DNA of 64,000 nucleotides from Candidatus Bathyarchaeota archaeon (GCA_963768425.1 CAVYHV010000015.1:24427-88426); one strand, 5' to 3'. Positions 4,202-31,315 are shown, counted from the stretch's first letter. The notes: generated from the sequence alone by a model not told the origin. Translations and numbers: made by a program.

Positions 4202-4322
4202 CATTTTTGCTTATTTTCTGCTTGTTTCTTTCCAATTTCTTGGTTCTTCGCAAAGAAAGGGAAAAATACATTCGCTTTGGCTGTTCAAACCTCCAGGACC
4301 ATAATGTGGTCTGAACTCTGCG
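4192..4322 (+). repeat. conserved unit left arm, copy 1 (interrupted by IS1182; resumes at 5959 to about 5985)
   Basis: >90% identical by eye to 28055-28184 and clearly homologous to 19155-19306. Confidence 0.9.
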
Positions 4323-5958
4323 GAGACTGTGTGAAAAGTCTCTTTCTCTGCTGGCTATTTACCGTTAACCTTAAATCTAGACTAGCTTTAGAGCAACAGA
4401 AAGAGCTGAAAAGCCATGAGCGAACACGTAACAGGCCACCACAGAAATCAGTCAGTTCTCTTCCCAAACACCATCGACGATTACGTCGACAAGGAAAACC
4501 CAGTACGATTCATTGACGCTTTTATAGATAGCCTCAACTTAGAGAAGCTCGGATTCAAGCATTCAGTACTCGCAGACACAGGAAGACCATCTTATAATCC
4601 CTCAGACCTTCTCAAACTCTACGTTTACGGCTACCTCAACCAGGTGAGATCAAGCCGAAAATTGGAGAAAGAATGCCACCGCAACGTTGAGGTCATGTGG
4701 CTGATGAAAAAGCTAGCTCCGGACTTCAAAACCATCGCTGACTTCAGAAAAGACAACGTGGACTGCATCAAAGGCGTATTCAAAGAATTCGTTTACCTCT
4801 GCAGGAGCCTGGATCTTTACGGTGCTCAACTGGTAGCGATTGATGGCACCAAATTCAAAGCGGTAAACTCCAAGAGCAACAACCTCAACGAGAAAACAGT
4901 CGCTTTGAGGCTCAAACAAACAGAAGAAAAGATAGCAGAGTACCTCAAAGAAATGGACCAAAACGATACGGCTGATTCAGCTGAAGATGAAAGCGTCAAT
5001 GCCGATGAGCTCAAGGAGAAAATATGCAAGCTTGAAGAGGAAAAGCAACGATACGAGCAGATTCAAGACCAAATGAAGGCAACAGGCCAGAAGGAGGTTT
5101 CACTTGTGGATCCAGATAGCCGTTTGATGCGGGTAGACAGTCAAAGGCTTGAAGTCTGCTACAACATTCAGACATCTGTGGATGCGAAGCAGCATTTAAT
5201 CGTGGATTACGATGTCATCAATAATTCGACTGATCATCACCAGCTAGCGACCGATGCTAAGGCTGCAAAACAGATGCTTGGCGTTGATCAGCTGGAAGTT
5301 TTGAGTGACAAAGGATTCTATGTTGCAAATGACCTCGTTGAATGTGAGGAAGCTGGGATAACGGTGTTTATGCCGATTCCAGCTTTCAATCCTACTAAGA
5401 ATGTAGGGGTGCCGGAGCCCGAGTTTTGCTCTGACAAGTTTGTCTATATGTTGAGCGAGATGCTTATGTTTGTCCTGGCGGGAGTGAGTTGGAGCTTTTG
5501 AGGCGTAGTTATCGAGGAAAAGAGCAATGTTGGGGTGGTCTTTATGGGACGAAATTCTGTCTGTCTTGTTCTTTCAGGAGTAGGTGCACTAGAAACAAGC
5601 GTGGCAGACGCATGTTCAGGCGGAGTATCAAGATGCTGTGGATAGGTTAAGGGCGAGAGTTAGCAGTTCAGATGGAAGAGCGAAGTTCGTTTGAGGCGTG
5701 AAATAGCGGAGCATCCGTTTGGAACTATTAAGCGAGCGTTCAATCAGGGTTATTTGCTTTTGAAAGGGTTACGGAAGGTTAAGGGAGAAGTCGGATTTAC
5801 TATGCTGGCTTATAACATGAGAAGGGCGATCAATATTCTTGGAGTTGGCACGTTAATGGCTTTGATTAAGGCGTAAAAAAGATAGTAAAGAACAAACGCA
5901 TCTAAGAGCTTGGGTGGGCAAATAATGAGGCTTTAGCTATGAGTTTTGACACAGTCTG
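4323..5958 (+). mobile_element. IS1182-family insertion sequence, 1636 bp
   Basis: TIRs GAGACTGTGTGAAAAGT / revcomp CAGACTGTGTCAAAACT; 4-bp TSD TGCG (4319-4322, 5959-5962); empty site seen at 28174-28191. Confidence 0.9.
4416..5876 (+). pseudogene. IS1182 transposase, split by about three 1-nt deletions (near 5447, 5620, 5683)
   Basis: GRPSYNPSDLLKLYVYGY, APDFKTIADFR, AIDGTKFKA, DKG, EHPFGTIK motifs; reading frames rejoin with single-base additions. Confidence 0.85.
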
Positions 5959-6061
5959 TGCGGGGTTCAAAACCCATAGAGACCTGAACCGTTATGGCAC
6001 GAAAACTTTTGGATTCGACCCTAGCGCGAAGAGGCTTAGGAAAAAGCCTGCCCATTTTGCC

Positions 6062-6616
6062 TCAGAGTCCTAACTCAATCAATTTGAGCAAACTGCCGAT
6101 TTGTATAGCGTCACTTCCGGTCACCAATTGCGAAAACGTCGGTTTCGCATTCAAACCAATAGTGACCACCTTGCCACCTCCATAAGAGATAGTAACGGTT
6201 AATCCTTTGTCCCTCAATTCCTCAGCAACTTTTCTTGCTTGGCTTAAGCTGCTCCACAATGATGCTCTGCCATTCCCCAACCCGCTTAGCACCTTCTTGA
6301 CGAAGTGTTTGTCGATTAAATCAAGGCTGAATTCTTTGTTTTCCGCCTTAAGTTGCAGAGTTTCCCGTCCATTTATCGTGACTGCTAGTTCGCCTTTCCT
6401 AAAAACGTGTCCCAGCAAATTCGGCAACTTCAGGTCCGAGCCAGGTTTTTTCTCTTTGACGATAGCGAGATCGAGGACAACGAAGCCATCGAGCTTGGTT
6501 TTCAATGTGCCCGCTTCAAGGGTTAGGTCGTGAAAGGTCACCTTAAAGTCGGATTCTTTTCCTGCAAGTTTGTCCATGAATTTCATGAATGTGGTGCTGA
6601 AATTTTCTGTTGCCAC
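6062..6616 (-). CDS. hypothetical protein
   Basis: 184-aa ORF with natural composition; function not recognised. Confidence 0.6.
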   Translation of the reverse strand: MATENFSTTFMKFMDKLAGKESDFKVTFHDLTLEAGTLKTKLDGFVVLDLAIVKEKKPGSDLKLPNLLGHVFRKGELAVTINGRETLQLKAENKEFSLDLIDKHFVKKVLSGLGNGRASLWSSLSQARKVAEELRDKGLTVTISYGGGKVVTIGLNAKPTFSQLVTGSDAIQIGSLLKLIELGL

Positions 6617-7155
6617 AGCCGAACACTATCTAAGCAAGATGTTAAAGTAACAATAAATTAAATTTATGAATCGTCCATTCATGAAAATCATGGCATGGGT
6701 AAGATACAGATTGTTCCAGCAATGCGTTTGTTATAGCAATCAATGAGATTAATGGTTTAGCTATGTCGTTTTCAGAGATATATTTCAGTCTATAGCAACA
6801 AAGTCAAAAGACAATACGCTGCAGTTCAATTTCTTCGGAGATATTTCAGATTTTTCTTCTATTAATTAAGCTTTACAAGGACATTCTCAAGGCGACTTCT
6901 TCTGAAAATACTCAGCTAAATCCCGCATTCGAACCAAAACAGAAATTGCTGCCTACAACAAACACTTTGCAACAAAGGCAGCGCCTTTCTAGGCATAAAT
7001 CTTATTCAAACCCACTATGTTTTATATTATTTCATCTTGATCATAAATTAAGTAACACAAAGGTTTTTTACGCCTTGTTTTTTGCGCCGTACTCGTCTTC
7101 AAGAATCAGCGCTCACTAGAAATTCTTCGATTAGAAAACAATGCGGGATGTCAAT

Positions 7156-7380
7156 TTAGAACATTCGCCCATTTCTTGTTTTGTTAACGTAATCTATCAA
7201 ACTGAATTCCAAAACGCCGCCGAAGCAGTTGGCTATCAACCATGTCCAAGCTCCAAAAGTGTTGAAGGCAAGCCAAAAAATAACGGTGCCTACCAGAAAT
7301 GTTATCGTGCCAACAAGATTATACTTAACGAATCGTAAAACCAAGTTACCTACCCTGTTGTGCAAAGCAAAATTGATCAT
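7156..7380 (-). CDS. GtrA-like small membrane protein
   Basis: RFVKYNLVG...WLIAN...FSL pattern; likely start at ATG 7380. Confidence 0.5.
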   Translation of the reverse strand: MINFALHNRVGNLVLRFVKYNLVGTITFLVGTVIFWLAFNTFGAWTWLIANCFGGVLEFSLIDYVNKTRNGRMF

Positions 7381-8107
7381 CCTTTTCTTAAAGCTCAAAC
7401 GGTCGCACAACACATTGCTGTCGCATATATTAACTGTCACGATATATTACCAAGATAGTAATATATCAAAACCTAAACATAACCTTTTCAATGAGCGATG
7501 AAAACAACTGTTGTACACCTGGTCATTAAAATATAGACAAGATAAGCATTCTGAAGGAAAAAAACCATCAAATTTAACTGAAAAGTGCAAAAGCTAGGCA
7601 GTAGTCGCGTTGTACAATAAGATGAGACTAAACCTTTCTCGGCGTCTTCGTAGTGGTGAATTACCCCCGCGAGGATTTTGTGTTTGGATTCGTTGATGCA
7701 ACGGTTGGTTCAATTGAATTATCAATTGTGGCAAAATTTTTTTTCGTTGATCTTTAGGTTTTCTTGCCTACTTTTTACAGATGTTACTACGTCCAAGAAC
7801 ATGGCTAAACGATCACCCATGCCCAACTCTTAAGATGAGTATCTAAACTTCCCACCGACCATCTTATCACAGCCATCGATAGGTATAGTGTACGAGCACT
7901 AACGCTGCAGAAAAAAGTTGTGAAAAGAAATGGAAAAAATCGGCGTTATCCACGCCAAATCAACGGTCATTCATAACGAATACTAAATAATTTTAGGCTG
8001 CAAATGAAGTGGGCTACTTTTTTTGAGTTTCGGCATAATACTGACGCTAAATACATAAGACATAAGGGCTTCTTAAATTCAACGATTCCATAGATGACTC
8101 TGGAAAA

Positions 8108-8473
8108 ATGGGGCCCAAGAACGAACATATAACTTTGTGGATATTGGATCAAGACCGCAAAGAAAATCGAGAACGCAGAAAAGCAGAAAATGCTCAAAAA
8201 AATCAGATGGATGCTGTTGAAGGCAAAAACCATTGTTCCAAGTGCAAGAAGACTTTTGACGAACCCAAGATAGTCCTAGTTTGCCCTCATTGCTTGAGCA
8301 AAATAGAAGAAAAAGGCAAAACAGGCTGCCAATACTGGTTGGGTTTTCTGAACCAAAAAGAAAAGACCGAATCAATCCCACAGGAATGTGTTGAATGTCC
8401 AAGAGTTTTGGAGTGCATGCTTAGCCAAGAAAAATCTGCAAGCGCAGTTTCAGAAATTCGTAAATGGTACTGA
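8108..8473 (+). CDS. Cys-rich zinc-finger protein
   Basis: CSKC, CPHC, GCQYWLG and CVEC...C motifs. Confidence 0.65.
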   Translation: MGPKNEHITLWILDQDRKENRERRKAENAQKNQMDAVEGKNHCSKCKKTFDEPKIVLVCPHCLSKIEEKGKTGCQYWLGFLNQKEKTESIPQECVECPRVLECMLSQEKSASAVSEIRKWY

Positions 8474-8519
8474 GTTGCCAAGATTTGCAGATATCCGGCT
8501 CATTTACGCCTTTGCTGTT

Positions 8520-8723
8520 TTACCCAGATGCCACCGAAACTACGCGACCCATGAGATCTTCGTCTTGCTTTAAGTTTAGATACTTATCGATACCTTTAAT
8601 CTCTAAAGACAACTCTTCTCTACCGTGCCCTAACATCTCAACAGCCGCATTGTTAACGTCAATAAAGTTTTCTTAAAGATCGATGACCCATATGGATTCA
8701 TCCATGCCTTTAATCAGCTTCTT
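8520..8723 (-). pseudogene. degenerate extra PAS domain downstream of the TrmB-PAS gene stop
   Basis: translates as KLIKGMDESIWVIDL*ENFIDVNNAAVEMLG..., paralogous to NLVNGMTETIWIIDFEGNFIDVNDAAVKTLG inside the gene; frameshift plus in-frame stop. Confidence 0.65.
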
Positions 8724-11700
8724 TTAAGTTGCCTCACTTTCTCTTAAAGCTGCCTCTTTTTTCTTGTCGACTGAAATATCTCTTGCAGTGATTAGCGAAA
8801 GTTCTTCATTATTAGTTTCAAGCAAAGAAACGGAAAATAGAACGGGAAAAATTTCCCCATTTTTTCGCCTAAAATATGATTCTTTGTTTCTTACTTTTCC
8901 TTCTTTGTTTAACATCAAAGTAATCCTTTCTCTATCAGAAGGGTCCGCCCAAATGTTAAGCTCTAAAGCACACTTACCAATAACTTCTTGCCTGGAGTAG
9001 CCAAACATTTCCAAAAAAATATCATTACACTCAACTATTAAGGAACCTCTTAATGTAGTAATCATAAAAGCATCTAGACTGGTTGAAAATGCTGTCCTAA
9101 GCCTTTCTTCACTTTCAATTAACGCTTGTTCAGCCTTCTTGCGTTCAGTGGTGTTTCGGGCTATGCTTAGAACTGCCCGCTTTCCACCGTATGTTATGAG
9201 ACTTGAGCTAATCTCCACCGGAATTTCTTGTCCATCCTTAGTAACGTGAATTGTTTCAAAAACCCGATTCCTAACAGAAGGAATTTCACCAAGCCTTTTT
9301 CTAATTTGCTCTGGGCTCATGATCTTATCAATGCCGCTAACACCAATACGCATCAACTCTTCTTTAGAATAGCCCAATGTTTTAACCGCGGCATCATTCA
9401 CATCAATAAAGTTTCCCTCAAAATCAATAATCCAGATAGTTTCAGTCATGCCGTTAACTAAATTTCTATAATTTGCCTCGCTCTCCGCTAAGGCTTCTTC
9501 AGTTTTTTTGCGTGTGGTAATGTCGTGAGCGACAACGAAAGCGCAATCAAGTTCGTTGTTTGTGTATTTCAATTTCGCATTCAAGGTTGCCCAAATGGAA
9601 CGACCGTCTTTCGTTATTACTCCAAATTCAACGTTTGGGTCTATTTTTTCTCCAGTTATGCTTTTTCTAAATATTTCTCGGAAGCGTTCTTTGCTCTCAG
9701 CGTTAAGAAGGTCAAAAGGACTCATAGAAAGCAATTCTTTTTCCGAGTAACCCGACAGAGCGCACATATAGTCGTTAACACTTTTGAACTGGAGACTCTT
9801 GCAGTCGATTTCATAGATAGCGGCTGGAGCGTATTCTGCAAGATGGCTGTATTTTTCGTCTTCTTCCCGCAGCTTCTCCTCTGCCAAAGTTTTGGACAAA
9901 GCCAAAGCCAAATGGTCAGCTATCCTTTCCCACATCTGAATAGCTTCGAGAGAAAACATGTTCTTCCGCTTACTATTTAACTGAAGCAACCCCAATCGAT
10001 TGTTACCGACATGCAACGCAAGCAACGCAACCGACTCATAGCCTTCTCCGTTGCAACGGTTGCGAGTTCGAATTTGACGGTCCGCATCAGATGTTGTAGC
10101 AAGAAGCCGCGCGGTATCGTTTGACCAAAAGCTTCCCTTTTCAGTAAAGAATTTTTTTGAAGGGTCGAATCTTCCGCACAAAATGTTTTCACACATGCAT
10201 TCGATAACTGGGTCACCTTTCAAGTCTCGAATTAAATTGCCAGCAGCGTCCCTAGCGACAAAGTTTGTCCTCTAAGTAAGACGTGTTCAGGAGGAAAGCC
10301 TCTAGTTTCATAATAAGGATAATCATCTCCGTCTTTGAGCCTAATTCCTACCCCCTCGCAACCTGATTGTTTTTGGAAGAACTCAAGGGAAGCAGTAATC
10401 AAATCCCTGGTACCAAAGTTGCATTAGTGATTTTCAGAAACTGGATCATTATCTCGCGTTCAGTTTCAGCTTTTTTGCGTTCAGTTATATCGATGATTGA
10501 TCCTTCCAGTATTCCCTCTTCAGGATAAAGCTTCAAAGCCGTAAGACAGAGTCTAGCTTCGCTTTGCTTGTTTAGCATTTTGCATTCGAAATCTTCGACA
10601 AAGCCATTGGCTTTTAGTCGGTTAACCATGTCTATTCTTTCAACTGGGTTAGCCCAAAGAGTAAGCGATGATTTACCTATTATTTCGTTCCGCCTGCGGC
10701 CAAAAATGCGGAGAAACTTTTCGTTGCAGTCAAGAATTTCAGATCCATCTAACTTGGTCCTAAACATTCCTGCTTCGGAGTTTTCGAAAATACTCCTATA
10801 CTTTACTTCACTTTTCCTCAGTCCTTCCTCAGCTTTCTTGCGTTCAGTAATGTCATTCGCGTAAATGTTTACGTAGCCTTCGACAATGACAGGTGCAAAT
10901 AACATCGAAAATACTTTTGCGCCATAGATCTGTTCACGCTCAATTTTAATGTTGGATTTTAGACAGTCAGCAACAAGTTGATTTATGTCGTCAGGTGCAC
11001 GTTCGCCAACTTTGATATTCCACTCGTTCAACAATAAAAGTGCAGCTGCATTTCCATAAAGAATTGTGCCTTCTCCTTTAATACGAAGCACGGGCAAAGG
11101 ATTCTCAGAAGGAAACTTTGATAAACTTTTGATTTTGTCTTCTTGTCGCTTAAGTTCAGTTATATCATCAAAGATTGAAACGAAATACCCGTTTTCTGGG
11201 CTATAGGTAAGTATGGAAAAACATCTTTCTGAACCTTGAAAGCAATATTCGAACCTTGCTGATTTACCATGGGAGATTATTGGCCAATATGTTGCAAGTA
11301 AATCTGTAAGATTCTTCGTGATTCCGCCAGGGAAAACATTTGTGCCTCGTTCTCCTAAGACGTTTTTCTCTATTCCAGTGATTCTTTTAAATGCAAGGTT
11401 TGTTTCCAATATAATAAAATCGATTGGTTTTCTATCTAATCCAAAAATTATTTTGTTGTAAGAAAAACCGCTATTTAGGTTAGCAAATAAGTAATCAAAT
11501 TGTCGTCGATCCCGTCTAAACGCCTTATTTTGGGGAATACTCGCCAAGAACCACGCTGCATTAAAATAGCTTTGAGCTAATTCTACCAAGCAAGGATTAT
11601 TTGAAAAAACCGCATCACTCTTGCTTTCCACAAGTTTCATTGAGGTCGTGAGAAGAATTTCTTTGTCATCGTATAGTCTAAGCCAAACTTCAAGTGGGGT

Positions 11701-12315
11701 AATAGCGTATCGGTGTTCAAAATTGGGGAATCTTTCTAATGTTTGGAGTACCCTCGAATGATTTGGTCCATGAAATTCTTCTGTGATAATTCGTATGGTT
11801 ACCTTTCGTTTCAAAGCGCTTTGGATGCTAAAGTTGTTAATGGCGATCCATCTGAGCAATCTTTCCAAAGAAACCATAATACAAATTTTGTCTTTGGCGT
11901 TTTCAAGATGTTTTTGTAGCTCAAGTTCAAGTGCGTCTCCTCGGATTAAAACGAGTTGATTGCTTTCGGAGTCAGATTTTGTATTTTCCTTCTCTTTCAG
12001 TTTCTCAATTATTTTGTTTGCTTTTTTGTCCAGATCTATGCTTTCTTTGGTTCTTCTCAGCATCAAAATGCCAACGGCGTCATTTATGGACAGAGGCTTA
12101 TACTTGGTTGGAACAGTAACTATTTTTTCAACTAGTCCAGCTTCTAGTAAGTCAATAATTGCTCTATAAGTGTCGGGGCGGGCTACTTTTGAAACATTAG
12201 CGATTTCGCTAATAGATCCCAAGCCTATCCGAAGGAGACCAAGATACGACTTTGCTTGTGTACCACTAAGACCGAGATCAACTAATGTTTTGATGTTTTC
12301 ATCAAGGGCACTCAA
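8724..12315 (-). CDS. TrmB-type HTH + PLD-like + multi-PAS + GAF sensor-regulator; ORFs 10399-12315 and 8724-10223 joined by about three 1-nt insertions
   Basis: N-terminal LVDLGLSGTQAKSYLGL wHTH; repeated DITERKKAE PAS ends; gap 10224-10420 decodes to GAF text (SLEFFQKQSGCEGVGIRLKDGDDYPYYETRGFP). Confidence 0.8.
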
Positions 12316-12514
12316 GATGCATTGCCTTCTACTCTTTGCAAATTGAGCAGTATTGTTCTGTTCTAGCGTATGTAGTCTTTAAGCTTTGGCGAATTCCACC
12401 CGATTTCGCTTAATTCAATTCAAAACTTTCAGAACAATATCCTGTTGGATGACCTTCCACCAACAACGGCTTATTACCTAAACAGTCTCTATAGACTACG
12501 GGGATGATTGTATT

Positions 12515-13015: not shown

Positions 13016-13110
13016 TATTTACCAAAAACAGTAATCAGGCGTAACTATGTTTGTTTGATTCGAGAATGAAAGGAACAAATCTGTTTATTTGCTGAAATCG
13101 TAAGAGAAAC

Positions 13111-19165: not shown

Positions 19166-19306
19166 TTTTGCTTATTTTATGCTTGTTTCTTGACAATTTC
19201 TTGGTTCTTCGCAAAGAAAGGGAAAAGTACACTCGCTTTGGCTGTTCAAACCTCCCGGACCATAATGCAGTTAGAACTCTGCAGGGTTCAAAACCCGTAG
19301 AGTCCC
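19155..19306 (+). repeat. conserved unit left arm, copy 2
   Basis: homologous to 4192-4322 plus 5959-5985 and to 28055-28208. Confidence 0.85.
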
Positions 19307-19588: not shown

Positions 19589-19672
19589 GCCCATTCTTTT
19601 ATCGCTCCATTTTCTCATGGTTTTAAAGGACTAAAAAAAGGAAAAAAGGAATTTTGTGTTGGTTTTTGTTGT

Positions 19673-22393: not shown

Positions 22394-22554
22394 TGAATTG
22401 CTTATTTATCGATCGCCTTATATGCCTTTGTTGTATAACGCAAAATAATGGACAAAACTCTTGAAATCCCACCTTTTGACTGAATATTTCACGTTTTTAG
22501 TTAATAAAGGAGAAGCATCACCAAAAAACGTCACAATTCAGTTTATGTAGCACC
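22385..22554. promoter_or_regulatory. divergent promoter block, duplicated at 26874-27044
   Basis: colinear about 170-bp similarity ending in GTTTATGTAGCACC in both copies. Confidence 0.75.
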
Positions 22555-22572
22555 TCAGGTAACAGTGTTTGC

Positions 22573-23538
22573 ATGAAAGAGCTTGAGCAGATAGATATCA
22601 AGATTCTCAAAATGCTTCTCAAAGACGGTCGAAGAAGCTTTTTAGAAATAGCTACACAATGCCACACCTCAAAAAATGTCATCTGGGCACATTACAAAGA
22701 ACTCAAGAAGGCAGGCATAATTGTTGGCGCGACTATTCAATTTAACTATCAAAAATTTGGCTACCATGGCTTAGCGACCATAATGATGAATGTAGAATCG
22801 CAAAATCTTGCAAATGTTTTCAGTCGCATTAGCGAAATCCCTGAGATGCATATGTTTCGCTACTATAATTCTGTCTATAATATCGCTGCAATCTCCACTC
22901 TGAAAAACATGAGTGATTTAGAACACGTGAAACAAGTCATAAACAAAAACAACAAAATAAATGAGTTCAAAACTTATCTTTGGGTCGATGTTCGAAACAT
23001 ACCTGAAAACATTTTGTCTGATCCTTCTGACCATCAAGATGATTATGTTTGCCCTCCAGTAAATAATCAAGAAAATTTCCAAAAAATTGATGAAATCGAC
23101 CTACAAATAATCGATGCGCTCACTTTAAATGGGCGCTTGCCATTCCGACAAATCGCTCAACAGATTGGGGCATCAACCACCACAATAACTAGAAGATACG
23201 AACGGCTTAAGAAAAATAATCTAATCAAGGTCTCGATTCAAATTAATGCGTTGAAATTGGGTTTCCAAAGCATTCTGGAAGTTAGCTTAGCATTAGCTGA
23301 TCAAAATGAGATAAACGAAGTGGCAAACAAGCTATCTAGAATCGCAGGAGTATCATATCTTGTAAAAATAAGCGGAAATTATGACTTGTCAGTCGTTGTT
23401 TTAGTAAAGGACTGTAATAACGTGGTTAAAATTAATGACGCAATCTTACAAATACCGAACATCAAAAAGATGGAAGCAACATTAAGGACACTTCCCGCCA
23501 CTTGGTCTGGGAAACGTCAATATATATCTACGTTTTGA
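22573..23538 (+). CDS. tandem (double) Lrp/AsnC regulator
   Basis: two HTH-RAM units (IDIKILKML.DGR.SF..IA and IDLQIIDAL..NGRLPF..IA). Confidence 0.85.
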   Translation: MKELEQIDIKILKMLLKDGRRSFLEIATQCHTSKNVIWAHYKELKKAGIIVGATIQFNYQKFGYHGLATIMMNVESQNLANVFSRISEIPEMHMFRYYNSVYNIAAISTLKNMSDLEHVKQVINKNNKINEFKTYLWVDVRNIPENILSDPSDHQDDYVCPPVNNQENFQKIDEIDLQIIDALTLNGRLPFRQIAQQIGASTTTITRRYERLKKNNLIKVSIQINALKLGFQSILEVSLALADQNEINEVANKLSRIAGVSYLVKISGNYDLSVVVLVKDCNNVVKINDAILQIPNIKKMEATLRTLPATWSGKRQYISTF

Positions 23539-23670
23539 TAAATTGAAAAGGAATTGTCATTTTCTTGAATAAAAACACTATTAATAGCAGATTATGGTTC
23601 GAATCCCTCCTCAGTGTGAACTTAATAAAAACAAGGAAAACAAATGATTTTTTTGAAAAAATTGGGGTTT

Positions 23671-23776
23671 GCTGAGGCTCTGGAAACTAAGGAAGAAATT
23701 TTCTTTTTTAAGGAGAAAAAGAAAATGAACATTCTTCAAGTGCAGCTATTTCGAACATGACCAGAGCCTTCTCAGC
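23671..23776. repeat. about 105-bp inverted-repeat-bounded element, copy B
   Basis: GCTGAGGCTCTGG...CCAGAGCCTTCTCAGC. Confidence 0.8.
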
Positions 23777-23851
23777 CATTTATCTTTTCATCTCTTCTTG
23801 TTTTTTGGGGACTAAAAAAAGGGAAAGGGAGTTGTGTTAAGCACTTTTAAT

Positions 23852-26800
23852 TTATGGATGTTTTCTTGTGACAAGGAGTGCTATTACTGCGATTCCCACG
23901 ATTATGACGATGATGATTGCGATACCTACGTATTCGATTGTTGATTGGGTTGCAATTCCGGTAAGAGGTGTCGCTGTTGGTGCTGCTGTTGCTGCGGGAG
24001 AGCCGGCATAGACGAAAGTTTCAGCCGCCGATGAGTAGTAGCCATTAGTTCCTGCAAAAGTTGCAAATATAGTGTAGTTACCTGTTATGCTTGGAGTCCA
24101 TGTTAATCTGTAGCTGCCGCTCTGATCAGTCGTGGCGTAACCTATGGGGTAGTGGTTTCCATTAGAGTCTAAAACAGCCAATTGCACTTGAACACCTGTG
24201 AAGTTAGTTGGTTCAGCCTGATCCTGGTAGACGTAGCCCATCCATGATTGCATGCTTGCGTCAGATGCACATGGAACCCCGTGTGGAAAGTCTGCTGCCT
24301 GTTGACTTTGGGTCGTGCCAGATGATATGTCCATCACTGTGCCGGTGATCGTTACCGGTGTAGCTGTCGTCACTCCTAGGTTAGGTGCTGAAACAGTGGT
24401 AGCACTGGGGCCTCTGCCAATACTGTATATTTGGTTGACGTAGCCGTTCATGCAGGTTATGTATCCATCCGCCGTAGCCCATTGTGGAGCAGCACTGGAA
24501 GTCCACTCGCTCGGGTATTCTGAGAGTGCCCATATTTGTTGTCCTGTTGTGGCGTTAACAGCGGTTGCTTCAGCGCCTTTGTACAGCGGGTCAGGAATGG
24601 TGTGCTCATCAGTAGCCAAGTATACTACTCCGTTAGCAATGGATTGTATCTGGGTTGGGTAAACTCCGTATGGTGTGTTTAAGCCAGCATAAGTGCTGTT
24701 ACCTTCACCACCGTTGCCCCAAGTATAGACTAGTTGTCCAGTTACGTCGTTGAAGCAGTAGAGTATTCCTCCGAATCCATCGACATAGAGGTTCCCGTAA
24801 GCAACTACTCCTGGAGGGGGTTGCCCTGGGTCGTAATAGTAATTAAAGGCGGCTGCGGTTGGAGTTGTCCATAGTAGTTGGCCCGTGTTTAGACTGTATC
24901 CTTGGAATTGTATAGTTTCCAGCGAATAAAGTGTGAAGACGCCGGTTTGGAAGTCGACTGCACTCTGTAAGAGAGTGACGTTGCCTGCTGGCGGATTATA
25001 CGTCTTCATCCACAGGATTGAACCGATTGCACCGACAGATGAGTTAAGGTTGACGGCGAAGTATGTGTAAGGAAGTTGCGGGTATCCTGCTTTAGTCGCG
25101 CCGAAACCAACGGGTAGAGAGCCGTTTCTGCAAAGCATTACATCGCCATATTTTACTGCGAGTATCGACACGGGGTTTGATCCAGTTGGCGGTTGCACTA
25201 TTTGTCCTGTGACGGCGCTGGGTGTTGCAGGTGGCGGCGGCATGGTGTTAAGCCATGGTAGTGAAATGTTCCAGTCATAAGTTGTTAATGAGCCGGAATT
25301 GATGCTTTTTATGGGAGCAGTGGTTCCAGGTGCAGCGGCATTGGAGTTAAGAGGTATGTTTGCATTCACCGTAATTGAGGAGCCGCGTGGAACGAATGTT
25401 GTAAGGCCAGTTTGGTAGATAACCCATTTCACCTACAGCTGGAATAGGGATCGTTGGAAGAAGGACTCCGTTGGATGCATTTACTGGGTCTGGTGATAAA
25501 CTTCCACCGCCGGTGTACGGATTAATGTCGTACTGCCAAAGTTTAGACATGTTCCATTCAGACATGTACCAATTTGGATTAGCAGCAGTGCCAATGTTGG
25601 TTATGACGTACTTTAATTCTTCACCGCTCGGACCCAAGATGTTATTGCTTACAACAGTATTCGGGAAGGCTACAACGCTTGGGGGGGATGTAGCTATAGG
25701 TACGACGTATGAAGTGCTTGCGGGAAGATTAGTTACGTTGAACAGCGAGTCTCCTGTGTATGCATCATAAAGCTGCCACTGGCCTGTAATTGAGTTTGGT
25801 GAGACTAAGATTGGCGGGTAAACACCATGTTGGTCGGGGTCCCAGAGGCTGTAGATGTAGCCGAATGAAATTGGGGGTATGTTTGGGTTACTCCAGAGTT
25901 GTTGTCCTGTGCGGAGGTTAATTGCTACGGTGGGTCCGCTGCCGGGGCCAGTGAATGACGCTGGTTGTGTGTAGAATAGTACTCCGTCCATTATTATCGG
26001 ATTGCTGAATCTTGGCTGATATGCAGATCCTTCGTAATAGGATGCTCCCTGAACAGCACCGCTGGGATTTGAGCCGCCGGCTGAAAACATGTTGCCTCCA
26101 ACCACTCCTCCAAATTGAAGCGGCAAAGTCCACATAAGATGAGAAGTTAAAGGTCCTACGGCATCTGTATGATACAGTGCTGCGTTTGCAGTGGCGCCAT
26201 ATCCTTCTGGCGGTCCCGAACCTGAGCCTAGCCAGTTTGACGAAAGTGGCCACCAGTTAGAGTCTGCACCGTATACTGGTTCTTGCCAGTAGCTTGTCGG
26301 TAGGGGTTCACTAGTTATAGCGCTGGAAATTGGTGCTGTTTGCACGGTGAGCGTTGTTGTTGCATTGCTAGGAAGATATGTATCGTTCACCATCGGTGAT
26401 TGGGCGTAGCCGTTGCCATTTGCGCCGTACACTTGTCCTGGATAATAAAAGCTGAAAGTGTAGGTACCAACAGCGGTAGGAGTAAAGGATGTTTCCTGAT
26501 TTGATGTTGTATCAGAGATGATTGGAAAAGTCGTTGTTGTTTTTGCCCCATCCGGTGCAGTTACGGTAAGCTGATAGCCTAGGAATCTATAGTTGTTTGA
26601 AAGTAAGGCTGCGCTCGCTGTGTAACCGTTCGTTCCGACAGCGGCAGTTGTTCCACCGGGTGCTCCGTAAACTTCAGTAAGCCACATGTAAACGTTTATT
26701 GTTTGACCGACACCTATAGGATTAGGTTCGGCAACAATGTAGGCTTGTGTTGGAATTTGCCACACAGGTGTATGTGCGTTAACGCTTGGTATTATCATTA

Positions 26801-26873
26801 GTGAAGCTGTCATCGAAAATGTTAAAAGTACAGCAATAAGAATAGCCATTGTTTTGCTTTTCAGTTTTTTCAT
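23852..26873 (-). CDS. beta-propeller surface protein paralog 2, one frameshift near 25425
   Basis: ORFs 25347-26873 and 23852-25432 join on removing one G from a GGG run; colinear with paralogs 1 and 4. Confidence 0.85.
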
Positions 26874-27044
26874 TTTTTTCCCTGAATGGCTTATTTATCG
26901 ATCTCCTTATATGCCTTTGGTGCCTAACGCGAAAAAATGGACAAAACTATAGAAATCCAGTCTTTTGACTGAATATTTCTCGTCTTTAGCTAAAAAATGG
27001 GAAGCATTATCAAAAAAACAGGATAATTCAGTTTATGTAGCACC
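26874..27044. promoter_or_regulatory. second copy of the promoter block, with no Lrp gene behind it
   Basis: matches 22385-22554, then switches abruptly to unrelated sequence at 27045. Confidence 0.75.
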
Positions 27045-27300
27045 ATCTCCAGCTTTATCCCACATCTCAAGCTTCTCATATTTCATTGCCGCCTCCTCAT
27101 ATCGCCCAGCTCTTTCAAGATTTCTGGCTTCTTCCATTATACATTCTCGTGGCGGAGGCGGAGGGACTGATAAATCTGTTCAATCTTTTCTAAACTTTAT
27201 ACGGCAACGTGGACACCAAAAGACATCTGCGAAGGTATTGGTCGGATTTCGAAAGACGAGCTTTTGTTAAAATCATGGGGATATCTTGACGCCAGTTATT
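27033..27300 (-). pseudogene. remnant of a Zn-ribbon/TPR-like protein gene truncated at the promoter-block junction
   Basis: WCPRC...*...MEEARNLERAGRYEEAAMKYEKLEMWDKAG; internal stops; boundaries approximate. Confidence 0.45.
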
Positions 27301-27403
27301 ACCATTTAATTGAGCTGATTTTTGTGTAAATTATTCTGGTGTTCTATGGTAGAATTGAAATTTGCAAAAGACCTTTTAAGGTATATTTCGTAAGCTTGCC
27401 CAA

Positions 27404-27664
27404 ATGTTTCTTCAGGTTTTGGCTGCTGTAGTTCATAACCAATTTGAAGTCATTCACCCCTTCCAAGATGGCAACGGGAGAGTCGGGCGACTATTGCTAA
27501 ATAACATATTACTAAAACATAATCTGCCACCCTTAAACATCGAATTAAAAAATCGAGCCCAATACTTCGCCGCCCTACAAGCATACGAAAAAGAAAACAA
27601 AATACGCCCAACGTTGGAGCTCATGCTAAAAGAATACCATGCCCTCAAAAAAATCATCAAATAG
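27404..27664 (+). pseudogene. Fic-domain C-terminal fragment
   Basis: canonical HPFQDGNGRVGR motif with no N-terminal part upstream. Confidence 0.75.
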
Positions 27665-27694
27665 GTGACTACAAAAAACGGAAATGTAGTCACC
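27664..27694. terminator. perfect 10-bp stem-loop after the Fic fragment
   Basis: GGTGACTACA-11nt-TGTAGTCACC. Confidence 0.5.
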
Positions 27695-27709
27695 CAGAAT
27701 TCCTGGCGG

Positions 27710-27755
27710 CTGTTTGACGTGCAGAAAGTCGCTGGCCTGAATCTGGTCCGACCTA
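27710..27755 (+). other. degenerate 3' half of a tRNA-Val(GAC)-like gene
   Basis: CTGT-TTGACGT-GCAG, variable loop AAGTC, GCTGG-CCTGAAT-CTGGT, CCGACCT-A. Confidence 0.5.
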
Positions 27756-27841
27756 CTCCCGCGTAGAAATGCTCCATTTGACTGTTTTTAAAGTATTTTG
27801 TTATTCTTGCTCCTTTAGCTCTTTGTGGTTTGAACCCGACA

Positions 27842-27971
27842 GAGGCTGTGTAAAAACTCAAATCGAGTTCAAAAAATTGCCTCAAATGTGCATTGAAATT
27901 TTTTTTAGGCCAGCATTATTTGCATGAAGCCAGCAATTTTCTGAGATCAAGAATAGTTTTTACATAGTCTG
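27842..27971 (-). mobile_element. 130-bp MITE with IS1182-type ends, copy 1
   Basis: TIRs GAGGCTGTGTAAAAACT / AGTTTTTACATAGTCTG; TSD GACA (27838-27841, 27972-27975). Confidence 0.85.
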
Positions 27972-28027
27972 GACACGGGTCAAATCCCGCCCGACCCACT
28001 CCCAAGGCACACATTTAAGGTTCTAAC

Positions 28028-28065
28028 GACGGTTTAAACGACGGCTTCAAGTTAGCCCTCGGCAC
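28028..28065 (+). repeat. att-like site R2
   Basis: GACGGTTTAAACGACGGCTTCAAGTTAGCCCTCGGCAC. Confidence 0.9.
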
Positions 28066-28208
28066 ATTTTTGCTTATTTTCTGCTTGTTTCTTGGCAATT
28101 TCTTGTTTCTTCGCAAAGAAAGGAAAAAGTACATTCGCTTCGGCTGTTCAAACTCCCGGACCATAATGTGGTTTGAACTCTGCGGGGTTCAAAAACCAAT
28201 CGAGACCC
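28055..28208 (+). repeat. conserved unit left arm, copy 3 (contains the empty IS target hairpin)
   Basis: TGAACTC-TGCG-GGGTTCA at 28174-28191. Confidence 0.9.
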
Positions 28209-28291
28209 AAACCGCTTCAGGCTCGAATCCAATCATAAAATTCTCATCTTATTTGCCCTGATCCCTTGAGATAAATAAACATGAAGAAACT

Positions 28292-28742
28292 TCACTTGGC
28301 TTCGTCTGAAAAGAGTTGCTTTCCTTTTTCTGTGATTTCGATGGCACCTACTTGCTTGAAAATATTAACGTTGTCAGTAACGTTCCAGTATTCTGCGAGT
28401 TTGCCATTAACTATACGATAGATGTCAACAGCCTCAGCTCTTATCTTCTTTCCAGTAGGACTTAGTCCCATAAATTCGCCTTTTGTGGGTCCCAGTATAG
28501 GAAAGGCGAACCCACACCTTGTTCCCTTCAGCGATGATGTCTTCAATAGATTCATGCCAATCAGGAAATGCGTTAAGACCCATAATAAATAATTGTTTGA
28601 GACCTTCTCGACCGACATTCTTGGAGCGGTCGATATAATCTGGTGCCACAAAATCGTCTATTAATTTCAAATAGTCCACGTTTCGATTATTATAGGCTTC
28701 AATAAATCTGCGAACAATCGCTTTATTCTCTTCTAAAGACAA
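28292..28742 (-). CDS. SnoaL-like ester cyclase, one frameshift in an A-run near 28485
   Basis: LEENKAIVRRF...AFPDWHESIEDIIAEGNKVWVR..YTGTHK|GEFMGLSPTGKKI; likely TTG start at 28742. Confidence 0.85.
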
Positions 28743-28907
28743 AAAATCACCAGTAAATTCTATTCTCTTTTTGAGATTTAAGCGTGTTGTGAAGTGCAAG
28801 TTTTAGACTTTAGGGCTTATCCACTTCTTTGCAGTCTATCAAAGACTCCAAGAGTAACCGTTTCCCAACGTCATTTTTAGATACTTTTCTTGTCGCATTC
28901 AAATCTC

Positions 28908-29723
28908 TTAAGTAATATCAACACGTTTTGAAGACTCGGCACTATGATCAAGAAAAAGAGCTATTAAATTCAATGTGTTGTCAGTTATCAGCTCGCGCGA
29001 TAAACCACTTTTAATTCCCATTTGATTCAAAGTCGTTCGTCTTAATTCCATCTCAGAAAGCAGACCATTCATAAGCATAGTTACATATTGAACGATAATA
29101 CTTTCTTTCATATCATTCTTTATTGTTTTATCTTTCTTGCCTTTTCTAACTGCTTTTGACCAAAACTCACCATTTCTCAACATCTGAATAAAGAATTCAA
29201 TGAAATGGGGCTCTTCAAAATATTTCTCAAATTCAAAATCTTCTAATGGCGAGAGGTCTTCAGTCAACTTGTTCAGGGTAGACTGTCCTACTTTGTTGAC
29301 GATAAGTTCAATTATGGATTCAGGCATTAAGTTCATGTTTTTAATGTGCTCAAAAGTGTCATTGGTGATCTTTAGTACTATTGGGTTGTCGATGCCATCT
29401 TTGAGTGTTTTTGCGCAAAGGAATAGAACCTGTTCTTTTCCGGATACGTCAGTTGGTAGAGTGGCAATCATGGTTTCATTGAGTTCTTTGAAGACTTTTT
29501 TTCCGACGGCAAAAAAAACATCGTTTTTGTTTTTAAAATAATTATATATTGTTGTGCGACTTACAAACGCTGCTTCGGCAATATCTTCTAGAAGGACCTC
29601 ATTTATAGGTTTTTTAGAGTAAAATTTTTCCGCTACGGCGAGAATTTCTTCTTTTGTTCTCTCTTTCTTTCTGTCGCGCAATTGTTTTTTTTCTTTGGAG
29701 GCATTGTTTTGAGTTAGTTTCAT
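28908..29723 (-). CDS. TetR/AcrR family regulator
   Basis: RTKEEILAVAEKF...LEDIAEAAFVSRTTIYNYFKNK. Confidence 0.9.
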   Translation of the reverse strand: MKLTQNNASKEKKQLRDRKKERTKEEILAVAEKFYSKKPINEVLLEDIAEAAFVSRTTIYNYFKNKNDVFFAVGKKVFKELNETMIATLPTDVSGKEQVLFLCAKTLKDGIDNPIVLKITNDTFEHIKNMNLMPESIIELIVNKVGQSTLNKLTEDLSPLEDFEFEKYFEEPHFIEFFIQMLRNGEFWSKAVRKGKKDKTIKNDMKESIIVQYVTMLMNGLLSEMELRRTTLNQMGIKSGLSRELITDNTLNLIALFLDHSAESSKRVDIT

Positions 29724-29780
29724 GACGTGAAAACATAATTGGCATCGCTGTTTATAAATATTTTACAGCTAATACATAAT

Positions 29781-29795
29781 TTTACACCGTGTAAA
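29781..29795. promoter_or_regulatory. candidate TetR operator
   Basis: perfect palindrome TTTACAC-C-GTGTAAA in the divergent intergenic gap. Confidence 0.55.
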
Positions 29796-29832
29796 TATTT
29801 ATATGCGACGTGTACTATAGTAATTAAATGTC

Positions 29833-30543
29833 GTGTTTTGTATGTCAACTGAAGAAGAAAATTTTTTGAGCAAAGAAAAGAGCGTTTTGCGATGGAGCGG
29901 TCTGGCTGGTATTCTGGCTGGAGTCTTTTTTATTTGCACCATCGTCACGCTAATTAATTTTGGGAATTCGACAACAGCCAACGTTGCGGATTTGATCACA
30001 AAGTTTCCAGATCACAGAATGGACCTTGCGGTGGGAAATGTCTTCTACTTTTTGGTCAGCGTCTCGTTAGTTGGTCTCGCGCTTGGCCTGTATCAGGCTC
30101 TTCGAAGGGCGAGCATTGGACTCCCGCTCTTCGGGACTGTTCTATTCGTTCTAGGTCTAGGAGTAACCTTTATTGAAGATACTACGCAGATCGCTTTCGA
30201 CCCGATCTCCAAACTCTATAATGCTGCCGCAGCGACCTCCACGGACAAAGCTACACTCACCCTCATATGGCAGGCAACACAGGGTATGTTCAATCAGTTT
30301 GACGTCGGAGCAACACTCCTCCTCTCCACAGGGTTAATCGTTCTTGGAGCAGCCATGATCAGGGTACCAGCTTTTGGCAAAATCTTCGGCGGGCTAAGTA
30401 TTGCAATCGGAGCGGCTCAGATCGTAGGGATATCTTTCCTTTCAACCAATTCTGCCGCATACGCACCATTCGCCCTCCTAGCCTTCTTAATCTTCCCAGT
30501 CGTCTTCGGATGGAAACTCTACAGTCTATCAAGGAAGCCATAA
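29833..30543 (+). CDS. DUF4386-like multi-pass membrane protein
   Basis: LRWSGLAGILAG start; about six hydrophobic helices. Confidence 0.65.
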   Translation: MFCMSTEEENFLSKEKSVLRWSGLAGILAGVFFICTIVTLINFGNSTTANVADLITKFPDHRMDLAVGNVFYFLVSVSLVGLALGLYQALRRASIGLPLFGTVLFVLGLGVTFIEDTTQIAFDPISKLYNAAAATSTDKATLTLIWQATQGMFNQFDVGATLLLSTGLIVLGAAMIRVPAFGKIFGGLSIAIGAAQIVGISFLSTNSAAYAPFALLAFLIFPVVFGWKLYSLSRKP

Positions 30544-30725
30544 GAAATCTTGGAATTGTTCTTGGGGGACTCCTTTTACGGAGTCTTTCAACACAATAAA
30601 CTGTGTTGGAATCCCAACGGGCCGCCATAAGAATTTTTTAAGAAGAATTGAGGATTCGCTTAGCGCGCGCTAAAGTGTTTTCAAACGCGCTTGACGCTTT
30701 TAGGCGATTGGACCTGACCCCATTT

Positions 30726-30855
30726 GAGACTGTGTAAAAACTATTTTTAATTTCAGAAAATTGCTGGTTTTATCTAAATAATGTTGGTTTAAAAAAGGAT
30801 TCAAAACATATTTGAAGCAATTTTTTGGGCTTGATTTGAGTTTTTACACAGCCTG
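30726..30855 (+). mobile_element. 130-bp MITE with IS1182-type ends, copy 2 (opposite orientation to copy 1)
   Basis: TSD ATTT (30722-30725, 30856-30859); 107/130 ungapped identity to the reverse complement of copy 1 by manual count. Confidence 0.85.
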
Positions 30856-30900
30856 ATTTGGGGTCAAATCCCACCGGACTCGCACCTTTAAAGTTCTAGC

Positions 30901-31308: not shown

Positions 31309-31315
31309 CTTCTAA

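Follow-up and report, generated by a model that had tools for sequence, protein, structure and literature searches.

Apparent homing of an IS1182-family insertion sequence and its MITEs to tRNA-derived quasi-palindromes at cassette ends in Bathyarchaeota

Elements that choose palindromes or the neighbourhood of tRNA genes

Within the IS1182 family, IS1272 targets hairpins (Furi 2016, PMC4923244; Wan 2017, PMC5678879), and palindrome targeting has been noted for members of the family (Siguier 2015, as cited in PMC4923244 and PMC5678879), for which, according to PMC5678879, no detailed data have been published. The palindrome preference that the original prediction took as its background thus holds in both papers, each of which cites Siguier 2015 for it. 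A duplication of the loop alone (pathway c) is drawn in PMC5678879 as a hypothetical route only. The elements studied here lie in a stretch of 64,000 nucleotides from a Candidatus Bathyarchaeota archaeon, which we call the window. They resemble IS1272 and TnSha1 of staphylococci in that they belong to the same family and have inverted-repeat or hairpin targets, often intergenic and used in either orientation (PMC4923244, PMC5678879). With the palindrome-targeting IS1182 members they share the general preference for palindromes (Siguier et al. 2015, as cited in the same two papers). IS1272 has no sequence consensus, makes no target site duplication (TSD) and deletes part of the stem, whereas the elements here have a conserved consensus of about 28 bp, a 4-bp TSD that is identical to the spacer, intact arms and an archaeal host. 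A T-arm-like half-site, a link to tRNA remnants and cassette ends, and matching MITEs are undescribed for IS1182 members in the literature that was searched. What we describe is real and is a specific form of a behaviour known for IS1182, the targeting of hairpins, and the homing recurs across the genus.

Similar habits are found further away. IS1397 and ISKpn1 insert into the loops of REP/BIME palindromes, and IS30 has a 24-bp palindromic hot spot; these DDE elements likewise insert in the middle of palindromes that are repeated in the host, but they belong to other IS families and have other targets, and the bacterial REP sequences are not tRNA-derived modules. The Ty3 and Dictyostelium TRE retrotransposons land beside tRNA genes as safe havens, guided by Pol III factors, so that the function of a tRNA-adjacent landing is similar, but they are unrelated elements and are not directed by DNA sequence. 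The IS1111-attC elements and group IIC-attC introns home, as here, to imperfect palindromes at cassette boundaries and collect in arrays (PMC11187229, PMC3001079). The former use a DEDD transposase with a guide RNA and the latter are retro-homing introns, while the transposase here is of the DDE IS1182 type. In comparison with integrons, the arrays here are linked to tRNA genes and have tRNA-like att sites instead of attC, and the palindrome that is hit is 44-120 nt away from the presumed crossover. Membership in the IS1111-attC type was considered and rejected because of the DDE IS1182-type transposase and the lack of attC, and the analogy is one of lifestyle only.

The insertion sequence, the MITEs and their target sites

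The cassette array of the window begins at the 3' end of a tRNA-Phe (GAA) gene (4128-4202, plus strand; ARAGORN, Rfam tRNA 65.6 bits). The IS1182-family insertion sequence, read directly from the sequence, occupies 4323-5958 on the plus strand (1636 bp) and has imperfect terminal inverted repeats of about 17 nt (GAGACTGTGTGAAAAGT on the left and, as reverse complement, CAGACTGTGTCAAAACT on the right) with one transposase gene between them, a layout that fits the IS1182 length of about 1.3-1.95 kb; other copies are 1627-1805 bp long. The transposase gene is a pseudogene (4416-5877, plus strand; Pfam DUF772 with 68 bits and part of DDE_Tnp_1), in which an ORF of 361 codons (4416-5501) goes on only via frameshifts. 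An intact copy at G000:C14:276692-278328 shares 92.8% identity with the IS, and three 1-nt deletions relative to that copy, near 5447, 5620 and 5685, break the frame. The window copy is a defective member of the family, with an interrupted transposase. Intact copies are present on contigs C14, C19 and C6 of the same genome, and the intact 487-aa transposase at L001:593-2053 scores 378.8 bits on the IS1182-family model NF033551 of NCBIfam, the cut-off of which is 270.

The left arm of the IS target (GTGGTCTGAACTC, 4306-4318, plus strand, with the palindrome part TGAACTC at 4312-4318) comes after a degenerate tRNA 3' end (...CCAGGACCA) plus TAAT, and the same left-arm motif, TAATGYGGTYYGAACYC, occurs behind tRNA 3' ends elsewhere in the genome. 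On the plus strand the sequence reads TGCG at 4319-4322 and again at 5959-5962 as the left and right TSD, and the latter is followed by the right arm with its T-arm-like tail (GGGTTCAAAACCCATAGAGACC, 5963-5984, plus strand; arm GGGTTCA at 5963-5969). TGAACCG, which is similar to a left arm, stands directly after this tail, and an equivalent chain of tail and arm is the IS target in locus L009. The repeat of about 150 nt that the IS interrupts (families D3 and D15) has two uninserted paralogues on the plus strand, both foreseen in the original prediction and both confirmed by sequence, with a single TGCA or TGCG where the IS site has the duplicate. The first, AGAACTC-TGCA-GGGTTCA with its tail (19273-19305; palindrome 19273-19290), lies about 110 nt into cassette 2 and has A as its first base where the IS target has T; it folds at -7.9 kcal/mol (z -3.8, as ssDNA), but via an alternative T-arm-like pairing. 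The second, TGAACTC-TGCG-GGGTTCA with its tail (28174-28206; palindrome 28174-28191), lies about 110 nt into cassette 3 and folds as the predicted hairpin with TGCG in the loop (-6.8 kcal/mol, z -3.3).

The two MITEs, MITE1 (27842-27971, plus strand) and MITE2 (30726-30855, minus strand), are 130 bp each, 83.6% identical and, as had been claimed, opposite in orientation. Short and non-coding, with terminal repeats that match those of the IS, they have the characteristics of MITEs; their interiors are unrelated to the IS, and MITE1 shares just the terminal inverted repeat of about 17 nt with it. The source genome holds six MITE copies, which have the target of the IS, and the two in the window have TSDs of the IS length but of different sequence. 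MITE1 is preceded by the left arm TGAACCC and the TSD GACA (27831-27841, plus strand; TSD 27838-27841) and followed by the second GACA (27972-27975), the right arm and a tRNA-Ala-like 3' end (CGGGTCAAATCCCGCCCGACCCA, together 27972-27998, plus strand). Its arms TGAACCC and CGGGTCA are imperfect, and a better pairing is that of TTTGA(A)CCCG with CGGGTCAAA, with one bulge. An empty homologue of this module in another species (L119) reads TGTGGTTTGAACCC-ATTT-CGGTTCAAATCCCGCCCGACC and has an att-like site about 50 nt further on. MITE2 stands between the left arm TGACCCC with the TSD ATTT (30715-30725, plus strand; TSD 30722-30725) and the second ATTT (30856-30859) with the right arm and a tRNA-Arg-like 3' end (GGGGTCAAATCCCACCGGACTCGCA, together 30856-30884, plus strand), and its arms TGACCCC and GGGGTCA pair perfectly over 7 bp. 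All three elements are thus centred in related palindromes with the 4-nt spacer as TSD, at the coordinates and with the sequences first proposed.

The tRNA T-arm-like tails that had been noticed are present at all three sites, to a different extent. The best match for the tail of the MITE1 site is with tRNA-Ala(CGC), at score 17, and for that of the MITE2 site with tRNA-Arg(TCT), at score 20, where shuffles reach at most 12; both matches lie at the tRNA 3' end and run through the acceptor arm, whereas the IS-site tail is T-arm-like only, with no match through the acceptor arm. Among the rebuilt sites the tails of M1, M2 and M6, together with several empty sites, match tRNAs from T-arm to acceptor with scores of 15-20 against the same maximum of 12; an Rfam search found no partial tRNA hit in the target tails. 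All three window elements also have G at both plus-strand ends, as predicted, but the terminal bases of 54 elements vary (C..G in 33, C..C in 10, G..G in 7 and G..C in 4), and the shared G is therefore not a rule of the family.

It could be argued that the arms are part of the element, being an extension of its inverted repeats or a footprint made by the IS, and not a pre-existing target. The reverse-complement 4-mers that often flank one other clade (the C9 copy, L038-L042 and L048) would agree with this, but the flanking 4-mers are direct, non-palindromic repeats, identical on both sides, in 39 of the 54 elements, intact empty sites with both arms are found in the window, in the rest of the genome and in other species, and the left arm runs on into a conserved TAATGYGG that is not palindromic. 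We find this explanation very improbable. The composition of the TSDs is 78% A/T, and the flanking 4-mers are non-identical in about 28% of the copies.

Sequence specificity of the target

With at most one mismatch, the motif of the original prediction has three matches in the window where 0.11 are expected, and none of 100 shuffles reaches three. Within this genome as well as in other species, most other copies of the subfamily have a target of this kind, and the original prediction thereby withstands the refutation that it named. MITE copies use this target as well, in seven or more other species of the genus. The IS copies in other Bathyarchaeia assemblies have identical 4-bp TSDs in 24 of 34 cases, and the flank consensus of these 34 copies is GGATTCGAACCC-N4-GGGT.TGAATCCC. 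Over the whole family the target consists of GGATTCGAACCC, an A/T-rich spacer of 4 nt and GGGTTCGAATCCC, often with a tRNA 3' end as its continuation. Identity reaches no more than 93% between IS copies and is 84% between the two MITEs, and the copies are consequently old.

A position weight matrix trained solely on the flanks of the 34 IS copies from other Bathyarchaeia genomes was used to score 13 rebuilt empty sites, nine of which belong to this subfamily and the MITEs and four to the C and D clades, which have different targets. The sites A1, A3, the tandem A4+B1, M1, M2, M3 and M6 score 16-29 and rank within about 5e-6 of the genome positions, while A2 and B2 are weak matches that rank near 1e-4. 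The empty paralogue at 28174 scores 19.0, and just one of the 230 other, unoccupied CCC-N4-GGG sites in the genome scores above 12. The targeting pattern is far beyond chance. A random insertion followed by selection, where copies persist only in harmless non-coding tRNA remnants and so mimic targeting, would be in keeping with every site being intergenic and in accessory regions. Selection can however not place the junction at the same nucleotide each time, and in nearly all of 50 tabulated sites the TSD abuts the start of the G-rich arm (GGG or a one-base variant), at the dyad centre, with site scores that reach the top 1e-6 of the genome positions; such an origin of the pattern is hardly credible.

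A more serious alternative is that the targeting is purely structure-guided, towards whatever short-looped hairpin or cruciform is extruded, and that the T-arm-like sequence merely reflects which hairpins are available. IS1272 targets hairpins without a sequence consensus (PMC4923244, PMC5678879), and the empty sites here fold as hairpins of -6 to -8 kcal/mol and include compensated arm variants, e.g. TGACCCC/GGGGTCA and CAGACCC/GGGTCTG. Complementary bases stand at 74% of the mirrored positions. Permuting the partner arms among sites lowers this share to 66%, and none of 2000 permutations reaches the observed value, which means that there is some site-specific complementarity beyond plain conservation, as a structure-based model also predicts. 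Against structure alone stands the sequence conservation of the arms from species to species, over about 12 nt on each side, even if this extended conservation could partly mirror a limited set of modules and not a requirement of the transposase. The regular 4-bp TSD, with no part of the stem deleted, is also unlike IS1272, and 121 other CC-N4-GG palindromes in which 6 or all 7 of the arm positions pair stand empty in this genome, among them six near-identical 18-nt copies of TTGAACC-TGCA-GGTTCAA with fully paired arms (7 bp) and 4-nt loops. Every transposase clade has moreover its own palindrome: a clade that is 60-63% identical targets GGATTCGCTTAA-N4-TTAAGCGAATCC, another that is 68% identical at the DNA level targets GTCAAG-GTTT-CTTGAC, and bacterial relatives with 40-46% identity have 4-bp TSDs inside GCRAAAWT-CWWG-AWTTTYGC. 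With palindromes that change from clade to clade of the transposase, the choice looks specific for sequence and symmetry, and not merely structural. Judged from these comparisons, recognition of two symmetric half-sites would fit no worse than recognition of a hairpin, and we think that guidance by structure only is unlikely. From the original prediction of a structure-guided targeting of cassette arms the targeted insertion stands, while conserved arms and clade-specific palindromes leave guidance by structure not established.

For the C9 copy, L038-L042, L048 and certain MITEs (L095 and L114, for example), the 4-mer on one side is often the reverse complement of that on the other (TGTT/AACA). 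These copies adjoin flanks rich in GCGCGC, and their true ends may be further out.

Cassette ends, tRNA genes and a proposed mechanism

The cassettes behind tRNA-Phe have conserved end regions, and the target palindromes sit within these. A left end, conserved over about 150 nt, holds the module that follows tRNA-Phe, and a right end, conserved over about 170 nt, holds the module that precedes an att-like site. The att-like site R2 (28027-28065, plus strand), which is the boundary of cassettes 2 and 3, starts 55 nt past the end of MITE1 and is made up of CGACGGTTTAAACGACGG, a T-arm-like part and then the acceptor end of tRNA-Phe; this site is conserved in 19 of the 61 genus genomes searched, the source genome counted. 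R3 (30900-30938, plus strand), the boundary of cassettes 3 and 4, starts 44 nt past the end of MITE2. The palindrome centre is not the recombination junction, as the homology of the cassette ends continues through the palindrome on both sides, and a clear integrated element of 25 kb on C14 has no such arm at its attR.

The elements are clustered. In this genome 8 of 11 are within 300 bp of an independent tRNA gene, an att-like site or a further target, compared to 1.8% of random positions, and about 6 of 16-18 modules adjoining an att-like site (about a third) are occupied in a sample that was picked by att-like site and not by IS. No real tRNA gene is restored at any of 53 rebuilt sites, three of which stand 21 nt downstream of an intact tRNA gene. 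The distance of 44-120 nt from the sites to att-like sites or the tRNA gene might suggest that the elements were placed by the site-specific recombinase that moves the cassettes and not by transposition. The inverted repeats however match those of the IS1182 transposase gene, varied 4-bp TSDs are the mark of DDE transposition, and the same IS occupies equivalent palindromes far from any att-like site. A PF00589 integrase is missing from the contig, in an assembly of 33 contigs with an estimated contamination of 4.75%. Placement by a recombinase is in our opinion next to inconceivable.

The most reasonable explanation, and in our judgement a probable one, is that transposases of this IS1182 clade insert the IS, and 130-bp MITEs moved in trans, site-specifically into a tRNA-derived quasi-palindrome at cassette ends. 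The target is about 28 bp, with half-sites that resemble tRNA T-arm DNA, GGWTYYGAACCC and GGGTTCRAATCC, on either side of a 4-nt A/T-rich spacer, and strand transfer would be staggered by 4 bp over the dyad centre, which would turn the spacer into a TSD on both sides and separate the arms. The full two-arm motif is almost confined to non-coding tRNA-derived modules, in each of which the conserved arm motif comes after a tRNA 3' end and is followed by the spacer and by another tRNA 3'-end copy, and such modules lie just behind some tRNA genes and inside the left and right cassette ends at tRNA-Phe and other tRNA-type att-like sites. The motif being so limited, the elements gather at cassette ends and never in real tRNA genes. 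A symmetric transposase complex may read both half-sites, and the intact copies on C14, C19 and C6 presumably mobilise the MITEs and the defective IS of the window. The sites would be harmless landing places and may also travel with the cassettes, and the IS might, as the original prediction supposed, ride on cassettes or disable them.

A bolder idea, which we regard as possible but doubtful, is that this IS1182 lineage and its MITEs have co-evolved with integrase-less cassettes that integrate at tRNA genes, homing to palindromic modules within the conserved arms to either side of att, and that their insertion both lets them hitch-hike with mobile cassettes and separates the arms from the crossover site, which would freeze the cassettes. 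If true, they would play in archaea the part that the attC-targeting elements play in integrons, and would help to shape the arrays.

The earlier picture of the IS1182 family was a vague preference for palindromes plus the atypical IS1272 only, and the elements described here are a clear example of sequence-specific target choice in the family. The target is unusual in that two tRNA T-arm-like half-sites face each other in inverted orientation, within non-coding modules derived from tRNA but not within tRNA genes, and it accounts for the gathering of IS and MITEs at the ends of cassettes that are stacked behind tRNA genes in these archaea. Occupied and empty modules are markers for tracing the history of the cassettes, and if an insertion blocks the movement of a cassette, it would be a mechanism for fixing acquired genes.

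Insertion target of the IS and the MITEs

The IS1182-family element of the window (A1, 4323-5958) has TGCG on both sides, between the arms TGAACTC and GGGTTCA. The two MITEs, M1 (27842-27971) and M2 (30726-30855), are flanked by two copies of GACA and of ATTT, respectively; they are 84% identical and lie in opposite orientation, and the terminal ~17 nt are the only sequence they share with the IS. A1 interrupts a ~150-nt repeat, two unbroken copies of which contain the palindrome with a single spacer (19273-19290 and 28174-28191), and this identifies the 4-bp repeats as true target duplications. Every coordinate, duplication and arm in the original prediction is present in the sequence, and the target motif that it proposed has three occurrences in the window where 0.11 would be expected. 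The frame of the A1 transposase is broken by three 1-nt deletions, as seen against a copy of 92.8% identity whose 487-aa gene is intact. The protein of this intact copy scores 378.8 bits against the IS1182-family model (cut-off 270), and is clearly an IS1182-family transposase. Its 38 closest relatives are all from assemblies labelled Bathyarchaeota or Bathyarchaeia, except one labelled only 'archaeon', which, with the archaeal RNase P RNA of the window, makes a Bathyarchaeia archaeon the most likely host.

That all three elements begin and end with G, which had also been pointed out, is a coincidence of three copies. Family-wide, the terminal bases of 54 elements are C..G in 33, C..C in 10, G..G in only 7 and G..C in 4. 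The outermost base of the inverted repeats is always G or C (window 4323, 5958, 27842, 27971, 30726 and 30855, and all family copies), complementarity between the ends is not maintained, and M1 and M2 differ in this base at homologous ends. A 5-bp duplication that includes the variable terminal G or C was rejected, as it does not fit.

A survey of the genome under study (G000; 2.96 Mb in 33 contigs, 44% G+C) with BLAST and an inverted-repeat scan detected ten IS copies, which fall into four sequence groups, as well as six MITEs and some fragments. In the group that comprises A1 and its relatives at 76% identity, the 4-bp duplications are identical for A1, A2 and B2, and A3 has perfect 8-bp arms inside 22-nt inverted flanks but unequal flanking 4-mers. 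A4 (1805 bp) and B1 (1627 bp) share ~76% identity and are arranged head to tail in a single palindrome 21 nt 3' of a tRNA-Pro(TGG) gene (G000:C8:199592-203123, locus L003). Between them is nothing but the 4 nt GAAA, and their outer 4-mers, TTTC to the left and GAAA to the right, are reverse complements of each other. A second tRNA-Pro gene has the same palindrome, empty, and the tRNA-Pro site is occupied in another species too, with different 4-mers (L036). Among the MITEs, M1, M2 and M6 have identical duplications within palindromes, and 36 nt separate M4, on contig C13, from another att-like site. Of the 11 elements in the genome, eight are at most 300 bp from an independent tRNA gene, att-like site or second target, compared with 1.8% of random positions.

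A transposase search returned 79 loci, and inverted repeats could be paired in 34 IS copies of other Bathyarchaeia assemblies, 24 of them with identical 4-bp duplications. The consensus of their flanks is GGATTCGAACCC, four A/T-rich nucleotides and GGGT.TGAATCCC, and its right side often extends as a tRNA acceptor end, at times up to CCA. We trained a weight matrix solely on these flanks and ran it over every position of G000. The rebuilt empty sites of A1, A3, A4+B1, M1, M2, M3 and M6 score 16-29, which at most ~5e-6 of all positions reach, and those of A2 and B2 rank near 1e-4. MITEs of at least seven other species in the genus use the same target with 4-bp duplications, and identical duplications, with an A/T content of 78%, are found in 39/54 elements. 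Copies elsewhere do thus not lie mostly in unrelated targets, the outcome that would have refuted the prediction. This confirms the observation, and the pattern is strongly non-random.

The flanking 4-mers are unequal in the other 15/54. In at least one pair of copies on one contig (L032 and L033, CAWHDT010000001.1), inverted and ~436 kb apart, the 4-mers are swapped reciprocally, ATTC/ATAA and ATAA/ATTC, a hallmark of homologous recombination between the two, which would imply a large inversion in that genome. Unequal 4-mers also occur in copies between two tails (A3, L044, L008, L105) or two left arms (M3), and the same cause would fit these.

A tRNA-like module and its proposed recognition

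Going by its sequence, each arm of the target is tRNA T-arm DNA, with one copy inverted. The right arm commonly runs on as a copy of a tRNA 3' end, and the left arm belongs to a conserved motif, TAATGYGGTYYGAACYC, located 0-10 nt after a real or vestigial tRNA 3' end. In direct comparison, the tails of M1, M2, M6 and several empty sites match real tRNAs of the genome through the acceptor arm, and the tail at the A1 site is T-arm-like only. Rfam, at a permissive threshold over 27700-32600, recognised no partial tRNA in the tails, and what it did match was at chance level (E above 3), so the tRNA likeness rests on the comparison with the genome's own tRNAs. A single T-arm is evidently insufficient as target, since reconstruction of 53 empty sites brings back a tRNA gene in none of them; three sites lie 21 nt 3' of an intact one. 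The tail is 3' of the transposase gene in ~22 IS copies and 5' in ~9, as judged by eye, and MITEs are found both ways, so any orientation bias is weak at most.

At 5985-5995 in the window a tail is directly followed by a further arm-spacer(-tail) unit, TGAACCG-TTAT..., and at 28201-28232 by CAAACCG-CTTC-AGGCTCGAATCC, so that modules are linked into chains. A unit of the second type is itself an IS target in locus L009.

The original prediction held that insertion is guided by structure. Empty sites can form hairpins of -6 to -8 kcal/mol, and 74% of mirrored positions are paired compared with 66% when partner arms are permuted among sites, a value that 0/2000 permutations reach. Recognition of an extruded cruciform by the transposase is conceivable. 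Most of the target signal, however, is plain sequence conservation. The palindrome is GGATTCGCTTAA-N4-TTAAGCGAATCC in a 60-63% identical clade and MITE M6, GTCAAG-GTTT-CTTGAC in a clade 68% identical in DNA, and GCRAAAWT-CWWG-AWTTTYGC in bacterial relatives. In G000, none of 230 other CCC-N4-GGG sites is occupied, nor any of 121 CC-N4-GG palindromes with at least 6/7 arm pairs. Because sequence conservation dominates, the clades differ in their palindromes and other palindromes are left unoccupied, we favour a transposase that would recognise two symmetric half-sites at fixed spacing and carry out strand transfer with a 4-bp stagger over the dyad. The targeting and its location at cassette ends stand, whereas structure guidance is not established. 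That the IS would ride on mobile cassettes or disable them, as was also proposed, is a hypothesis.

Six near-identical copies of an 18-nt palindrome, TTGAACCTGCAGGTTCAA, which are among these unoccupied palindromes, lie in A/T-rich intergenic DNA of the genome (C6:226222, C6:303277, C9:173208, C9:275219, C17:223987 and C30:131419), all empty of IS and MITEs. Their arms are fully paired in 6/6, one has CCCA instead of TGCA, and the palindrome may be a regulator binding site. An IS clade of 53-55% identity (G000:C9:236281-237914; L038-L042, L048) and its own 130-bp MITEs (such as L093, L095, L098 and L114) have GCGCGC-rich flanks (GGCTGGCGCGC) and 4-mers that often are reverse complements (TGTT/AACA). 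Either the true ends are further out, or this clade follows another target logic.

Cassette ends and att-like sites

The window (G000:C15:24427-88426), which also holds an archaeal RNase P RNA, has behind its tRNA-Phe gene (4128-4202) successive stretches of 15, 8.9, 2.9, 0.7 and 0.8 kb. The same att-like site closes each of them. It consists of CGACGGTTTAAACGACGG followed by a T-arm-like segment and then the tRNA-Phe acceptor end. The ~150-nt repeat that opens stretches 1-3 is the same in all three. A second sample took the att-like site as its starting point; of the 61 genus genomes searched, 19 conserve this site, G000 counted. The site often has an arm-spacer-tail module 25-55 nt upstream; ~10-12 of these modules are empty, among them L119, the empty homologue of the M1 site, and six have an IS or MITE end. 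No orthologous empty M2 site was found among 100 genus genomes searched with the left flank of M2, and the homology of this flank ends ~110 nt short of the MITE, where there is another tRNA-like remnant.

Homology among cassette ends extends past the palindrome on both sides, so the palindrome is internal to the conserved end regions, which measure ~170 nt at the right cassette end and ~150 nt at the left, and is not a junction. Palindrome and tail as an att core (C-O-B'), with the spacer as crossover, was rejected as a general reading, because homology continues through the palindrome and because the attR of the C14 element has no such arm. A palindrome 44-120 nt away from the presumed crossover, on either side of it, would be in keeping with accessory (arm-type) attP binding sites. 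The C14 element is a probable integrated element of 25 kb (G000:C14:260232-285610). It starts at a tRNA missed by ARAGORN, ending ...GGGTTCAAGTCCCACCCCCGGCACCA at 260356 and adjoined by the gene of a 431-aa tyrosine integrase (260424-261719, minus strand), and has a repeat of the tRNA 3' end near 285580-285610 (pattern match C14:285594). The intact IS copy A2 (276692-278328) sits within it.

A tRNA-Leu(TAG) gene (G000:C30:76813-76898) is followed by the same TTTTTGCTTATTTTCTGC... sequence as the cassette starts behind tRNA-Phe, and tRNA-Leu acceptor sequence terminates att-like sites of other species (L144, L145), so one cassette family seems to use several tRNA genes. A 449-aa integrase is a candidate recombinase for the cassette att-like sites; 70 nt separate its gene (G000:C28:17802-19151) from a CGACGGTTTAAACGA-like site (region G000:C28:17380-19151; locus L085:3380-5164). 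Upstream, there is an empty target palindrome with a high score (C28:17465), along with two more tRNA 3' remnants. Another such remnant (GGAATCCCAACGGGCCGCCA, 30605-30630) follows the last gene of cassette 3 in the window. Since the homology of this gene with its counterpart in another species (L151) stops inside the remnant, it hints that tRNA 3' remnants may mark recombination boundaries.

Relation to known insertion systems

IS1272, a member of the IS1182 family, inserts into hairpins without a sequence consensus and without duplication, and part of the stem is lost in the process (Furi et al. 2016, PMC4923244; Wan et al. 2017, PMC5678879), and Siguier et al. (2015), as cited in these two papers, state that some members of the family target palindromes. 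Wan et al. drew, as a hypothetical route, one with duplication of the loop alone, and the present case realises it. It differs from IS1272 in its ~28-bp consensus, its archaeal host, in being common to MITEs and in its tie to tRNA-derived modules at cassette ends. From what is described of the IS1111-attC elements and the group IIC-attC introns of integrons, the lifestyle is alike and the enzymes are unrelated. We found in the literature searched no report of such a target, nor of any IS or MITE targets in Bathyarchaeia. The targeting of hairpins or palindromes is known for the IS1182 family, and the target described here is a new variant of it.
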